Counted from the first letter of the stretch, positions 19,081 to 53,591 are shown. The stretch: 64,000 bases of DNA from Candidatus Microgenomatus sp. (GCA_020724585.1 DYGS01000001.1:422002-486001), one strand, 5' to 3'. Notes: generated from the letters alone by a model not told the origin. Made by a program: numbers and translations.

Positions 19081-19123
19081 TCGTGGTCTTCGCTTCGCTC
19101 GACCTCGACAGATCGGTCATCGG

Positions 19124-19195
19124 AGCGGTGGAGCGGGCTTGAACCGCCGACCTCTTCCTTGGCAAGGAAGCATTCTACCACTGAACTACCACCGC
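19124..19195 (-). tRNA. tRNA-Gly (anticodon GCC)
   Basis: Acceptor GCGGTGG/CCACCGC, anticodon stem-loop CTTCC-TTGCCAA-GGAAG, T-arm GGCGG-TTCAAGC-CCGCT. Confidence 0.8.
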
Positions 19196-19250
19196 AAATT
19201 TCAAATATTCAGTGACCAAGCTTTGCTTACCACTGAACTACCACCGCAAA
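19176..19250. repeat. 23-bp direct repeat of the tRNA-Gly(GCC) 5' end plus 3-nt flank (19176-19198 and 19228-19250) around the spacer AGCAAAGCTTGGTCA...TATTTGAAATT
   Basis: Exact repeat; spacer shared with the tRNA-Leu(UAA) and tRNA-Leu(UAG) loci. Confidence 0.85.
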
Positions 19251-19622: not shown

Positions 19623-19736
19623 GATGACATCCTCCCCGCCATACTGGCGGGGTATCCGTCTAAACGAGGATGACATATCAGCGTTCAATTCATCCACGGG
19701 CTTATCGCCCGTGGTTTTCTTGAATGCTGTTATAAA
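19623..19736. repeat. 114-bp hairpin-rich element, copy A (intergenic); inverted copy at 26031-26143
   Basis: Reverse complement matches 26031-26143 with 2 mismatches; internal palindromes CCCCGCCATACTGGCGGGG and CCACGGGCTTATCGCCCGTGG. Confidence 0.85.
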
Positions 19737-22877: not shown

Positions 22878-23186
22878 TGTTTTAATTATAACTCAAATTG
22901 ATATAAATAAAATTACATTTTCAACTTTTAGAAGCACAAGAACAAGCAAAGAAACAAAAATTTGGAAAACGAGTATTTTAAGATTGTTCAAGAATTGAAC
23001 AATTTCAAGCTTGCTTATGTTATCAGTAAGCGTGAGCTAGGCATAACAAAACACAGTGGGTAAGCGGAAGGCCGAAACGAGCGAAGCGAGTGGATGACTG
23101 GAGCGCACACACGATATGGGTTAGCGAAGCTCCGCGAAGCGGAGCTGAGCGAGCAAACACGAGCTTCGCTACAAAATTAAAAATGG

Positions 23187-24734: not shown

Positions 24735-24910
24735 GTGATCACCATTTATAAACTTGACAAACCTATAGTCATATGCTATATTACCACTACATTCTGAGGC
24801 TGCTTTGATAATTATCAATGCCGGCGTTAGGATTTTACAGGTCCCGTCTACATGACGGGACTTTTTTTTCTAAATTTCTAGTATAATGTAAATTGATGCC
24901 GGAGTGGTTT

Positions 24911-24985
24911 AACAAGTCGGAGTGGCGAAATTGGTAAGCAAAGCTTGGCCAATTTCTTTAACAAGTCGGAGTGGCGAAATTGGTA
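24911..24985. repeat. 26-bp direct repeat of the tRNA-Leu(UAG) 5' end plus 5-nt flank (24911-24936 and 24960-24985) around the spacer AGCAAAGCTTGGCCAATTTCTTT
   Basis: Exact repeat. Confidence 0.85.
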
Positions 24986-25046
24986 GACGCGCAGGATTTA
25001 GGATCCTGTGGAGTAATCCTTGCAGGTTCGATTCCTGTCTCCGACA
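24965..25046 (+). tRNA. tRNA-Leu (anticodon UAG), long variable arm
   Basis: Acceptor GTCGGAG/CTCCGAC, anticodon stem-loop CAGGA-TTTAGGA-TCCTG. Confidence 0.8.
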
Positions 25047-25182
25047 CTTAAAGATTATGCAATTAATTCACAAACTTACAAGAAAAGAGAGAGATGTATT
25101 GTCAGTTTTTTTGATGTTTATACCCATTGTCATCTTTTTTAGTGTACTTGCATTATTTTTAATAATTGTTTAATATCTAATT

Positions 25183-31806: not shown

Positions 31807-32019
31807 ATGTCTAATGAAATAAACAATCCCAATACCAATAAAATACATGATGCAGATTCGCATCCTGTAATAATAGGACGGGATGCACAGCAAGTTCCGC
31901 AAAAAATAGGACAGGATGCACAGCAAGTTTCGGAAGATGGTAGGTATGGTTCATCCATGGTAACCGATGATGGCAAGGGCAAAGTGGAAGCCCCGCCTGC
32001 TCAAACGGATCAAGTTTAA
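31807..32019 (+). CDS. small hypothetical protein (70 aa) with internal repeat IGRDAQQVPQK/IGQDAQQVSED
   Basis: Strong RBS; ORF. Confidence 0.5.
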   Translation: MSNEINNPNTNKIHDADSHPVIIGRDAQQVPQKIGQDAQQVSEDGRYGSSMVTDDGKGKVEAPPAQTDQV

Positions 32020-48154: not shown

Positions 48155-48532
48155 ATGAAAACTGCAACTGATCCAAGACACTTGAAAAGAAGGGCTATTT
48201 TAAAATCTTTATTTGCTCAAAGTTTTACTAAACAAAATAATTTAGGAGAAGATGTTAAAAAAATTTTGAAAAAGACAAAAAAATTAAATAAAATTATTAC
48301 CGATTCTGCTCCAACTTGGCCGATTGAAAAAATAAACAAAATCGACCTTGCAATATTGCACTTGTCTATTTACGAACTCTTGGAGGGGAAAACTCCCCCT
48401 AAAGTAGTTATAGATGAAGCTGTTGAGCTGGGCAAGGAATTTGGGTCTGAATCATCGGGAGGTTTTGTAAATGGAGTCTTGGGAACGGTTTATGATACAT
48501 TAATTCAAAAGAAAGATGAAAAAAATAACTAA
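48155..48532 (+). CDS. nusB: transcription antitermination factor NusB
   Basis: NusB-like helical protein, RRAIL...LAILHLSIYELL. Confidence 0.7.
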   Translation: MKTATDPRHLKRRAILKSLFAQSFTKQNNLGEDVKKILKKTKKLNKIITDSAPTWPIEKINKIDLAILHLSIYELLEGKTPPKVVIDEAVELGKEFGSESSGGFVNGVLGTVYDTLIQKKDEKNN

Positions 48533-49208
48533 TATTGAGTCTACTTTTAAAAATAAAGCGTTATTTCTGCAAGCTTTGACTCATAGAAGCTGGGTTAACG
48601 AAAACGACAAAAAAAGAGGCACCAATGAGAGATTGGAATTTTTAGGAGATGCCATACTAGAATTTATCGTTTCAAAAAAGCTCTATTCTAAATTCCCTGA
48701 CAAAGAAGAGGGCTATTTAACCGCCCTTCGAGCCAATCTGGTAAACACCAAAAACTTATATGATGTTGCAGAAAAAATCGGGTTAGGAGAAAAAATATTT
48801 CTTTCCAAAGGTGAAGAAGATGGCGGAGGGAGAAATAACCCATCGCTGTTGGCCGACACGGTTGAGGCAATAATTGGGGCTTTATTTATAGATTCAGGGC
48901 TAACAAAAGCTGAGGAATTTATCAAAGAAAATATTTTAGTAGACCTTGATAAAAGAGCCAAAGCTCCTCTTAAAGACCCTAAAAGTCTTCTTCAAGAAGT
49001 GATTCAGGCTCAAAAATTGCCCGCACCAAAATATAGCGTGATAGATGAAATTGGACCGGATCACGACAAAAAGTTTACAGTTGAAGTAATAATCGATGAT
49101 AATAGACGGGCCAAAGGCGAGGGACGGAGTAAAAGTGAGGCAGAACAAATGGCAGCCAAAAACGCTCTATCTTCATATTGTGAAATCGAACTTGATAATA
49201 TAAAATAG
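48516..49208 (+). CDS. rnc: ribonuclease III
   Basis: Signature ERLEFLGDAILEFIVS plus C-terminal dsRBD. Confidence 0.9.
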   Translation: MKKITNIESTFKNKALFLQALTHRSWVNENDKKRGTNERLEFLGDAILEFIVSKKLYSKFPDKEEGYLTALRANLVNTKNLYDVAEKIGLGEKIFLSKGEEDGGGRNNPSLLADTVEAIIGALFIDSGLTKAEEFIKENILVDLDKRAKAPLKDPKSLLQEVIQAQKLPAPKYSVIDEIGPDHDKKFTVEVIIDDNRRAKGEGRSKSEAEQMAAKNALSSYCEIELDNIK

Positions 49209-53039: not shown

Positions 53040-53591
53040 ATGAAAAAAGGAGCAACATCCTTCAAAGATACCAAGTCTAGAAGTTTGACTTCTAAAACAT
53101 ATGCTTTCATCGACGCCTCAAATATTATTTATGGAGCAAAAGATGAAGGTTGGCTGATTGATCAGAAAAAACTAATTAAATATTTAAGATCTAAATTTAA
53201 TATTTCGAAGGCATTTTTCTATTTTGGAAAAGATAGCAAAAATGAGAAACAAACCAAATTTTTAAAAATTCTAGGACAATTTGGATACACACTCAGAGTT
53301 AAAGAAATAAAAAGATATTATAAAAAAACTAAAGCCAATTGTGATGTTGACCTTACAATGGACATGTTGATACTAAAAAACGAATACTCTGGTGCAGTTG
53401 TACTTTCAGGAGATGGCGATTTTTTACCATTATTTAAGTATTTAGAGAGTAGGAAGAAGAAAATTATCATCATTGCCTTTTCCAGAAAAACATCAAGGGA
53501 TATTAAACGCTTTGCAAAAACTAACTTTATTGCACTTGAAAACCAAAGATATTTAATTGAAAGGAAACCAAAAAAATGGGGAGGACCCTAA
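53040..53591 (+). CDS. NYN-domain (LabA/DUF88-like, PIN-like fold) protein
   Basis: AFIDASN...CDVDLTMDML...VVLSGDGDF. Confidence 0.6.
   Translation: MKKGATSFKDTKSRSLTSKTYAFIDASNIIYGAKDEGWLIDQKKLIKYLRSKFNISKAFFYFGKDSKNEKQTKFLKILGQFGYTLRVKEIKRYYKKTKANCDVDLTMDMLILKNEYSGAVVLSGDGDFLPLFKYLESRKKKIIIIAFSRKTSRDIKRFAKTNFIALENQRYLIERKPKKWGGP

Follow-up and report, generated by a model that had tools for sequence, protein, structure and literature searches.

A putative very small palindromic insertion element at the D-loop of tRNA genes in Woesebacteria and Microgenomates

In a 64,000-nucleotide (nt) stretch of DNA from Candidatus Microgenomatus sp. (GCA_020724585.1, DYGS01000001.1:422002-486001; hereafter the window), the 5' part of the gene for tRNA-Leu(UAG) is duplicated around a short hairpin. 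We regard this feature as probably one copy of an undescribed, very small, site-specific palindromic insertion element of the Woesebacteria/Microgenomates that would act at the DNA level, apparently as a very small form of selfish DNA. Copies of the same sequence also lie in coding sequences, promoters and tandem arrays, which argues for a copy-and-paste mobile element rather than a tRNA-specific RNA device. The original prediction, made from the sequence alone, had described three instances of a tRNA 5' duplication with a shared spacer and called for a genome-wide search for the motif. The motif was found well beyond this genome and outside tRNA genes, which points to a family of mobile mini-elements rather than to a descriptive oddity. 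No account of the element was found when the literature was searched by core sequence and by description.

At the tRNA-Leu(UAG) locus, a 26-mer (AACAAGTCGGAGTGGCGAAATTGGTA) occurs in two exact copies on the plus strand (24911-24936 and 24960-24985), which are the only ones in the window; no matches are expected from shuffled sequences, and a chance repeat was rejected on this basis. These were the repeat bounds originally predicted, and both copies are indeed exact, but the full direct repeat measures 29 nt instead of 26 (TTTAACAAGTCGGAGTGGCGAAATTGGTA, at 24908-24936 and 24957-24985; repeat family D2). The 20-nt spacer between the 29-nt copies (AGCAAAGCTTGGCCAATTTC, 24937-24956) consists of two parts, a constant hairpin core, AGCAAAGCTTGG (hp1), and an arm, CCAATTTC (X'). 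The notion of a shared spacer is therefore to be refined: the hairpin core is constant, and the remainder is a tRNA-specific inverted copy of the D-loop. As anticipated, the second repeat copy is the start of an intact gene, of which it holds nt 1-21 (24965-25047; detected by ARAGORN, and by the Rfam tRNA model with 58.2 bits). In the predicted fold of the precursor, the 30-nt hairpin at 24927-24956 is dominant and the downstream copy forms the cloverleaf.

A third, truncated copy of the tRNA start (GCCGGAGTGG) lies further upstream, and the corresponding pattern GYCGGAGTGG has 3 matches versus 0.02 expected. This indicates that at least two rounds of the same process took place at the locus. 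The TATAAT box stands 10 nt upstream of this relic, which is the spacing found in insert-free relatives: in their empty tRNA-Leu(UAG) loci TATAAT lies 9-14 nt before the tRNA +1, where the relic copy sits here. The relic has C2, like the tRNA-Leu genes of relatives (which start with GCCGGGG or GCCGAGG), whereas the present tRNA-Leu(UAG) has U2:A71, implying that the acceptor stem was altered by a compensated pair after the first duplication. The window derives from JGI metagenome 3300029893. Two independent further assemblies of the same strain carry an identical 449-nt intergenic region; only such identical copies (three contigs in all), and no empty-site allele, were seen at the strain level. 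An assembly artefact was rejected, as the region is identical in three independent contigs and the core occurs in many unrelated projects.

The window holds four such modules, at tRNA-Leu(UAA), tRNA-Gly(GCC), tRNA-Leu(UAG) and, with a variant core, tRNA-His (Table 1). The three predicted instances are thus all real, with tRNA-Leu(UAG) on the plus strand and the other two on the minus strand as stated; the tRNA-His module and the relic had not been listed. The spacer core GGTAAGCAAAGCTTGG has 3 matches in the window versus 0.03 expected, and the recurrence of the duplication is confirmed by exact copies and core matches in tRNA-Leu(UAA) and tRNA-Gly(GCC), where the same core follows a copy of the gene's own nt 1-20/21. 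In each case the bases after the core pair with those that precede GGTA in the very same tRNA, namely GTGAAATGG with CCATTTTCAC in tRNA-Leu(UAA) and TTCAGTGG with TCACTGAA in tRNA-Gly(GCC). The tRNA-His module has its own complementarity (GGTGA with TCACC) and a core, AGGGAAACCTTAGC, that folds into a compensated hairpin, AAGG-GAAA-CCTT, with the stem AAGG/CCTT. A D-loop GGTA is present in nine of the 16 tRNA genes of the window, and the canonical insert in three of these nine.

This architecture recurs in related loci, in the order native promoter, stub (tRNA nt 1-21 or 1-9), hp1, X', short linker, and a fresh 5' copy joined to the rest of the gene. Among 49 distinct tRNA modules, the junction always lies 3' of GGTA, at nt 20/21 in 48 and at nt 9 in one. 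X' pairs with the last 4-13 nt of the stub (X). In 39 different modules, X:X' pairing holds in 83% of cells versus 70.7% in shuffles (0 of 500 reach 83%), and in 18-44% when the register is slid; it weakens with distance from the core, and both sides have changed in 10 of the 16 pairs examined for covariation. G:T and A:C mismatches are equally common (20 versus 18), which gives no hint that the stem is kept specifically as RNA, and selection on RNA structure was rejected for want of a wobble bias. Core variants keep the stem and vary the loop (AAA, ATA, ACA, GGA, GTA), or exchange both strands of the stem, from AAGC/GCTT to AAGG/CCTT.

The duplicated segment starts exactly at the tRNA +1 in 14 of the 49 modules and 1-8 nt upstream of it in 18; six more are inner units of arrays, and in 11 the stub differs from the gene. 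The modal repeat length is 20 nt for inserts at nt 21 and 9 nt for inserts at nt 9, so that the repeat boundary follows the end of the gene rather than a set length. A fixed target duplication of about 21 nt, which would explain the viable nt-21 inserts, was rejected because of these 9-nt repeats. All 22 mismatches between stub and gene fall within nt 1-7, with no difference from the real tRNA at nt 8-21 in any stub. The acceptor parts of the stubs are decayed or chimeric in 11 of the 49 modules, several stubs looking like the 5' part of a different tRNA that shares the D-arm; in a relative (L090), the stub of the orthologous tRNA-Leu(UAG) locus equals tRNA-Leu(GAG). Judging from these sequences, the stubs would be non-functional and recombining. 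Of 42 modules, 28 have a strong -10 box (at least five of six positions) upstream of the stub, and 5 have one in the linker. This suggests that the stub holds the native position and that the added DNA comprises core, X', linker and a new copy of nt 1-21.

The tRNA-Gly(GCC) module is common to several species, in which it looks orthologous, with linkers that are homologous but diverged (at about one third of positions, by eye) and with an unchanged core and stub; in one of these loci, L185, tRNA, stub and X' have changed together. Stub and intact copy are less than 130 nt apart in all of about 70 tRNA modules, and an intact gene lies downstream in every module but one. The exception is tRNA-Thr(GGU) in the metagenome-assembled genome (MAG) contig LCET01000005 (L013, identical to L070; interrupted region at 316-487 of L013), into which four 23-nt units are inserted; its exons are intact, and a restoring copy is lacking. 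Yet in L084, a 708-kb contig of that organism, five units precede core, X', linker and an intact tRNA-Thr(GGU). From this comparison, the interrupted gene appears to be a deletion variant or a collapsed assembly. At three tRNA-Ile loci (L087, L103, L174), an upstream pseudo-copy reaches tRNA nt ~38 and contains a complete compact unit (see below) at nt 21/22; next come about 35 nt with TTGACA...AAAAT, and then the intact gene. This 5'-half duplication seems to be an event separate from the insertion of the element.

The family was traced by exact-pattern scans of species-representative genomes with the 18-mer GGTAAGCAAAGCTTGGYC, which gave 57 genome stretches (about 45 of them in context), and of metagenomes with GGTAAGCAAAGCTTGGCC, which gave at least 120 stretches. 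The exact core was found at no fewer than 160 public loci, and 255 core copies were counted in about 1.2 Mb of fetched loci. The contextual matches in genomes are labelled Woesebacteria, Microgenomates or Patescibacteria (Candidate Phyla Radiation, CPR), or belong to mislabelled relatives; the metagenome loci bear no organism label. MAGs labelled 'Gammaproteobacteria' that carry the core have gene order and 50-70% amino-acid identity in common with the Woesebacteria loci and the window, and on these sequence grounds are evidently of the same lineage. In the 'uncultured Gammaproteobacteria' MAGs L009, L018, L023, L028, L030, L036, L037, L042, L057, L059 and others, the order of the tRNA cluster and the element itself are as in Woesebacteria, and the labels look wrong. 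A scan of viral contigs gave six chance matches, none in a tRNA context, and a phage origin was rejected.

Modules were found in about 20 tRNA species (Met, three Thr, two Lys, Ile, four Leu, Gly, two Gln, two Ala, two Pro, Trp, Asn and others), some of them stacked two or three deep. A few inserts lie antisense at tRNA 3' ends, at the TACC of the acceptor or T-arm, and the duplicate there restores the 3' end. In the fetched loci, a sample biased by how the loci were found, 254 distinct tRNA genes could be compared: a stub module is present in 59 of the 120 genes with a D-loop GGTA versus 22 of the 134 without; by another count, 31 of 116 tRNA genes in the loci carry a module. Its presence is patchy among orthologous tRNAs and among genomes. 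Three of the four insert-free tRNA-Leu(UAG) genes of relatives have GGCA instead of GGTA (L023, L043, L047), and the fourth (L019) keeps GGTA yet is empty. More generally, insert-free genes, or intact copies beside a stub (L052, L096), often have GGCA, GGCTA or TGTA in the D-loop, which could reflect loss of the target site, i.e., immunity. The phenomenon is wider than the canonical core: other, unrelated apical hairpins use the same succession of stub, hairpin, complement, linker and tRNA, at tRNA nt 9, 14 or 21. Loci of this kind are L025 (around 60-132), L116, L134, L068, L095 and L037 (1460-1528), and one recurrent family among these hairpins has the form ACAACC-(GC hairpin)-GAACGTTG.

Outside tRNA genes the element takes a compact form, GGTA, AGCAAAGCTTGG, CC-stem-loop-stem-GG and TA. 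Its hp1 has the general form (A)AGC-NNA-GCTT-GG and is followed by a second, variable hairpin closed by CC...GG and then by TA. The basic unit is about 30 nt long (range 18-36); the compact units measure 23-36 nt, most often 30. Among 88 of them, 47 distinct second hairpins were counted, every one self-complementary, and in some cases the same unit turned up at unrelated loci. The unit sits 3' of (G)GTA and itself ends in GGTA, so that units can stack in tandem; they occur singly or in arrays of up to five. They were found in intergenic DNA, in extended -10 promoter elements (TGGTA followed by AAAT), and in coding sequences, where their length is a multiple of three and a single reading frame is used, G-K-Q-S-L-A. 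The coding copies of L010, L022, L035, L071, L073 and L163 all read (G)KQSLA. In MurC of L035 the core copy makes a unique 7-residue insertion, which neither 11 homologues nor solved MurC structures share; for the insert in the UDP-glucose dehydrogenase of L073, alignment to solved structures gave no information. Like the palindromic elements of Rickettsia, these are palindromic inserts, in frame, within otherwise conserved proteins of a single lineage.

Could the module instead be of use to the tRNA gene that carries it? Stub and hairpin would then form a functional pre-tRNA leader, a selected RNA or DNA element controlling expression or processing of the downstream tRNA, and its spread would be recruitment; it might work as a decoy 5' strand against the acceptor 3' strand, as a processing signal for RNase III or RNase P, or as an attenuator. 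We consider this unlikely. It would agree with the share of tRNA genes that carry a module in these loci (roughly a quarter to a half), with the conservation of the tRNA-Gly(GCC) module across species despite linker divergence and the co-variation in L185, with the invariance of stub nt 8-21, with the use of unrelated apical hairpins in the same architecture, with a precursor able to fold with either copy as acceptor strand, and with an RNase III encoded in the window (48516-49208). However, the unit also occurs in coding sequences, promoters and intergenic arrays, where a role as tRNA leader is impossible; its presence among orthologous tRNAs is patchy, its stem has no bias of G:U over A:C, the acceptor parts of 11 of the 49 stubs have decayed or are chimeric, and nothing reaches the Rfam threshold. 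Replication errors alone, that is, quasi-palindrome template switching and slippage at tRNA genes without any dedicated element or enzyme, are in our view rather improbable. Fold-back copying at a hairpin would give exactly such an X', and the perfect second hairpins of many sequences, the variation of unit number between assemblies and the full-unit tandem repeats look like products of slippage. Nevertheless, an identical core of 12-18 nt across genomes with 50-60% protein identity cannot recur by error: it must have been copied from existing copies, probably under the constraint of a recognising factor, and both the stem-conserving loop variants and the compensated AAGG/CCTT point to hairpin recognition.

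Partial tRNA duplicates around an insert are also the classic signature of integration. A plasmid or virus with its own tRNA 5' copy and promoter might have integrated and then been mostly deleted, leaving stub, two ends and a replacement 5' part, much as in Caldiarchaeum, where a 1.8-kb recombinase-encoding element splits the tRNA-Thr(GGU) gene and leaves a dead 5' fragment 1.8 kb upstream, with the recombinase gene in between (PMC3293823). Weak -10-like motifs are frequent in the linkers, and the longer upstream copies (nt 1-38) of the three tRNA-Ile loci are a possible product of such an event. We nonetheless hold an integration scar to be very unlikely, as no long form was seen among the modules, all of them short, and no integrase was found nearby; moreover, about 20 tRNAs would each need a matching element, yet all have the same 12-nt end, and the tRNA-specific inverted arm X' and the 30-nt units in open reading frames (ORFs) and arrays would be left unexplained. 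Finally, we give hardly any credence to an intron-like unit, bounded by GGUA on both sides and removed from the pre-tRNA, with the upstream copy as exon 1 and the duplication incidental. Both 5' copies are equivalent partners for the acceptor 3' strand in the folds, and the interrupted tRNA-Thr(GGU) of L013, with its four units, intact exons and no restoring copy, had seemed to speak for splicing; but this evidence was overturned by the restoring copy found after the array in the larger assembly, L084, and the intron reading thereby lost its only support. All other tRNA modules have an intact downstream gene, a check by hand of the L013 locus revealed no bulge-helix-bulge motif and junction flanks that are direct repeats, a group I intron would have to be much larger (and no Rfam family matches), and the coding copies are in frame and translated.

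We therefore return to the insertion element and to how it might work. The D-loop bases G18-G19-U20-A21, and also U8-A9, would supply the GTA site in most tRNA genes. Insertion there would destroy the gene, and presumably only arrangements that leave a complete gene are retained, which would explain why every tRNA module has one. A hairpin-recognising, single-strand-specific enzyme of the REP/RAYT or IS200/IS605 (HUH) type might cut after GTA, and fold-back or template-switch synthesis might then copy the bases of the target into X' and the re-created 5' part; both steps are put forward with low confidence. In tRNA modules, X' and the D-loop bases of the fresh copy may act as a second hairpin with a large loop. 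Transcription would start from the promoter upstream of the stub, and stub, hairpin and linker would form a long 5' leader that RNase P cuts off, so that the cell would obtain a normal tRNA-Leu(UAG) and the insert would be neutral baggage. Slippage and recombination between short repeats may afterwards lengthen, shorten and homogenise the modules. Fold-back (quasi-palindrome) template switching accounts for X' and for the wealth of perfect second hairpins, and slippage or recombination for the arrays, the variation in unit number, the chimeric stubs and the concerted change in L185; that folded single strands of the tRNA gene set the boundary of template switching is speculation. In a more specific version, which we advance as doubtful, a hairpin seed of 12-18 nt is set after GTA and the gene is then rebuilt by target-templated synthesis, with a fold-back arm and a fresh copy that begins exactly at the first or last nucleotide of the gene; the template might be the folded tRNA gene or else the tRNA. 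As a weaker variant of this, the stub-hairpin could have been co-opted as a tRNA-specific leader RNA. Repair templated by the mature tRNA, an appealing way to obtain the +1 boundary, was not adopted, since the antisense inserts at tRNA 3' ends lack CCA (0 of 4).

Several points weigh against an insertion element. A Pfam search of the window ORFs of at least 150 amino acids revealed no transposase, reverse transcriptase or integrase domain, and a crude HUH/Y1 motif regex gave no match in 1.24 Mb of related loci, no genome-wide scan having been made. All-against-all clustering of the ORFs near elements returned only syntenic housekeeping genes and translations of the repeat, and no candidate enzyme. 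The left edge of the duplicate coincides with the tRNA +1 at both insertion positions (and with the tRNA 3' end for antisense inserts), which is not what one would expect of a simple transposase with a fixed target duplication. The linker, too, is left unexplained by the element, and a fixed staggered cut does not account for the boundary at the gene ends. Lastly, the divergence of the tRNA-Gly(GCC) linkers around an unchanged core and stub, together with the joint change in L185, calls either for concerted evolution or for selection acting on the module, and the latter would favour a functional leader.

Miniature palindromic mobile DNA is known as a kind; what is unusual here is the size of 18-36 nt, the D-loop target, the target-complementary arm and the gene-restoring duplicate. 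By analogy in size, GTA target, two hairpins and a lineage-restricted invariant core, the element appears to most resemble the repetitive extragenic palindromes (REP)/REPIN and the miniature IS200/IS605 derivatives. REP/REPIN are imperfect palindromes of 20-40 nt with GTAG 5' of the hairpin, present in many copies that are single, paired or clustered; they are lineage-specific and keep the stem while the loop varies. These properties are reportedly those set out by Nunvar in 2010, by Bertels and Rainey in 2011, and by Ton-Hoang in 2012. They are mobilised by RAYT, domesticated HUH Y1 transposases of the IS200/IS605 type, whose gene is a single copy in the same genome and usually has REPs on its flanks. 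Like REP/REPIN, the present family combines a short palindrome with a conserved 5' tetranucleotide (here GGTA and the AAGC-NNA-GCTT hairpin), many copies and loop variants. Unlike them, as REPs are extragenic, it has copies inside tRNA transcription units and in frame in ORFs, and we know of no REPs inside tRNA genes or ORFs, nor of any with a target-complementary arm or a duplicated target. The Pfam search of the window ORFs and the HUH/Y1 search of the 1.24 Mb of loci, neither of which was genome-wide, gave no RAYT-like gene. IS200/IS605 elements, as known from IS608 and ISDra2, insert 3' of a 4-5-nt target, with single-stranded DNA as the likely substrate and in an orientation fixed relative to the target strand, with hairpin ends and no classical fixed duplication. 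The likeness to these and to palindrome-associated transposable elements (PATEs) lies in the insertion 3' of a fixed short target, (G)GTA, in the 49 modules and the compact units, in the lack of a fixed-length duplication, in the fixed orientation relative to the target strand and in a probable single-stranded substrate. The known miniature derivatives measure 100-400 nt and have distinct left and right ends, unlike the units described here, which measure 18-36 nt, have a right end that is their own target (hence the tandem arrays) and would be in part target-templated. Miniature derivatives carry subterminal end hairpins homologous to those of an autonomous TnpA-encoding copy. The unit has two hairpins, and no autonomous TnpA-type copy was found near the elements or in the fetched loci.

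In its tolerance inside genes, the element would resemble, again by analogy, the Rickettsia palindromic elements (RPE), selfish palindromes that Ogata and colleagues are said to have described in 2000 in frame in coding genes and in RNA genes. Both families occur in these two settings and are confined to one small-genome bacterial lineage; RPE, however, are 100-150 nt long and have no defined GTA target, tRNA-start duplication or tandem 30-nt arrays. A classical miniature inverted-repeat transposable element was rejected, as the unit ends, AGCAAAGC... and ...GCCCTGG, are not inverted repeats and the repeat that flanks it is GGTA/TA or varies from 9 to 29 nt. A CRISPR array, in which repeats of 24-48 nt alternate with unique spacers of comparable size beside cas genes, was rejected too: the period is ~30 nt in all, of which 18 nt are constant and 12 nt usually identical between neighbouring units. 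The integrative element of Caldiarchaeum, which together with the mobile archaeal tRNA introns is the closest published analogue, is alike in its dead tRNA 5' fragment upstream of a functional gene with a replaced 5' part, and differs in that the insert here is 20-60 nt without an ORF and one core serves about 20 tRNAs. Among introns, Fujishima and colleagues reportedly described in 2010 mobile non-canonical tRNA introns in Thermoproteales and other Archaea, of about 12-30 nt, at positions outside the anticodon including the D-arm. Such introns are excised at the RNA level by the splicing endonuclease through a bulge-helix-bulge, and no restoring duplicate is needed. The two systems have in common short related sequences across many tRNA genes; here, in contrast, the host is bacterial (PBP1, RecG, BipA, IF3 and RNase III are encoded in the window), such a motif is lacking and an intact gene copy is always present, and an archaeal-type intron was rejected on account of the host and the motif. 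Group I tRNA introns have a ribozyme core (P1-P9) of about 200-300 nt and usually occupy the anticodon loop; this candidate was likewise rejected, the insert being 20 nt long, in the D-loop and without an Rfam match even at E <=10. At gathering scores Rfam recovered only tRNAs, and the leader had no match at E <=10.

If the proposed element is real, a mobile element of only about 30 nt is very abundant in CPR bacteria whose genomes are smaller than 1 Mb; its target would be the most conserved four bases of tRNA D-loops, yet the gene is never left broken. Should target-templated rebuilding hold as well, this would be the smallest known site-specific mobile element, with built-in repair of the host gene, and the mechanism that yields a target-complementary arm and a duplicate from the exact tRNA +1 could reveal a hairpin-guided nuclease or polymerase, a possible tool. 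In practice, GGTA-AGCAAAGCTTGG-CC would offer a signature for tracing one Woesebacteria lineage and for spotting mislabelled genomes. The element would explain 'pseudo-tRNA' fragments and odd 10-residue protein inserts (GKQSLA...), and it calls for caution in CPR tRNA annotation, since such loci can be collapsed during assembly so that a tRNA gene looks interrupted.

Table 1. Coordinates of the tRNA-Leu(UAG) locus and of the other modules in the window
Feature	Position	Strand	Basis or composition
Terminator of upstream gene	24839-24863		
-10 box TATAAT of the tRNA-Leu(UAG) transcription unit	24882-24887	+	Direct reading
Relic of older tRNA 5' copy, GCCGGAGTGG = tRNA nt 1-10	24898-24907	+	Pattern search and relatives
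Leader octamer TTTAACAA, copy 1, within the 29-nt repeat	24908-24915	+	Repeat family D2
Dead 5' stub, exact copy of tRNA-Leu(UAG) nt 1-21	24916-24936	+	Ends GGTA (G18 G19 U20 A21)
Complete 30-nt hairpin	24927-24956	+	D-loop bases, core and complementary arm; minimum-free-energy fold, covariation
Constant hairpin core hp1, AGCAAAGCTTGG	24937-24948	+	Stem AAGC/GCTT, loop AAA
Arm X', CCAATTTC	24949-24956	+	Exact reverse complement of stub bases GAAATTGG (24927-24934); lengthens the hairpin
Leader octamer TTTAACAA, copy 2	24957-24964	+	
Intact tRNA-Leu(UAG)	24965-25047	+	nt 1-21 = second repeat copy
tRNA-Leu(UAA) module	3179-3238	-	Stub 3238-3219, core 3218-3207, X' CCATTTTCAC 3206-3197, linker 3196-3179; tRNA 3094-3178; family D3
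tRNA-Gly(GCC) module	19196-19247	-	Stub 19247-19228, core 19227-19216, X' TCACTGAA 19215-19208, linker 19207-19196; tRNA 19122-19195; family D4
Variant tRNA-His module	668-721	-	Leader and stub 721-701, ends TGTA (tRNA nt 9); variant core AGGGAAACCTTAGC 700-687, X' ACTCACC 686-680, second leader copy and G-1 679-668; tRNA 594-667; family D5

Some further features of the window were observed. Besides RNase III (48516-49208, plus strand), an NYN-domain (PIN-like nuclease) protein is encoded at 53040-53591 (plus strand); either might conceivably act on the long leader hairpins. All 13 tRNA genes before 23.3 kb lie on the minus strand and all three after 24.9 kb on the plus strand; the cumulative GC skew is lowest near 18-20 kb and climbs beyond about 30 kb, and a replication origin may be located in this region of strand switch and skew minimum. 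GC-rich inverted repeats stand by tRNA genes in this genome of 35% GC, at 3040-3090, 19640-19720 and 23130-23180 (all on the minus strand), among them GCTCGCGTCCGGCGCGGGTGTCGCGAGC after tRNA-Leu(UAA) and GTAGCGAAGCTC...GAGCTTCGCTA after tRNA-Leu(CAG); these could be terminators or belong to a further repeat family. A 33-nt tandem duplication with 88% identity (AATAATAGGACGGGATGCACAGCAAGTTCCGCA) lies at 31869-31934, downstream of a DUF5660 gene.

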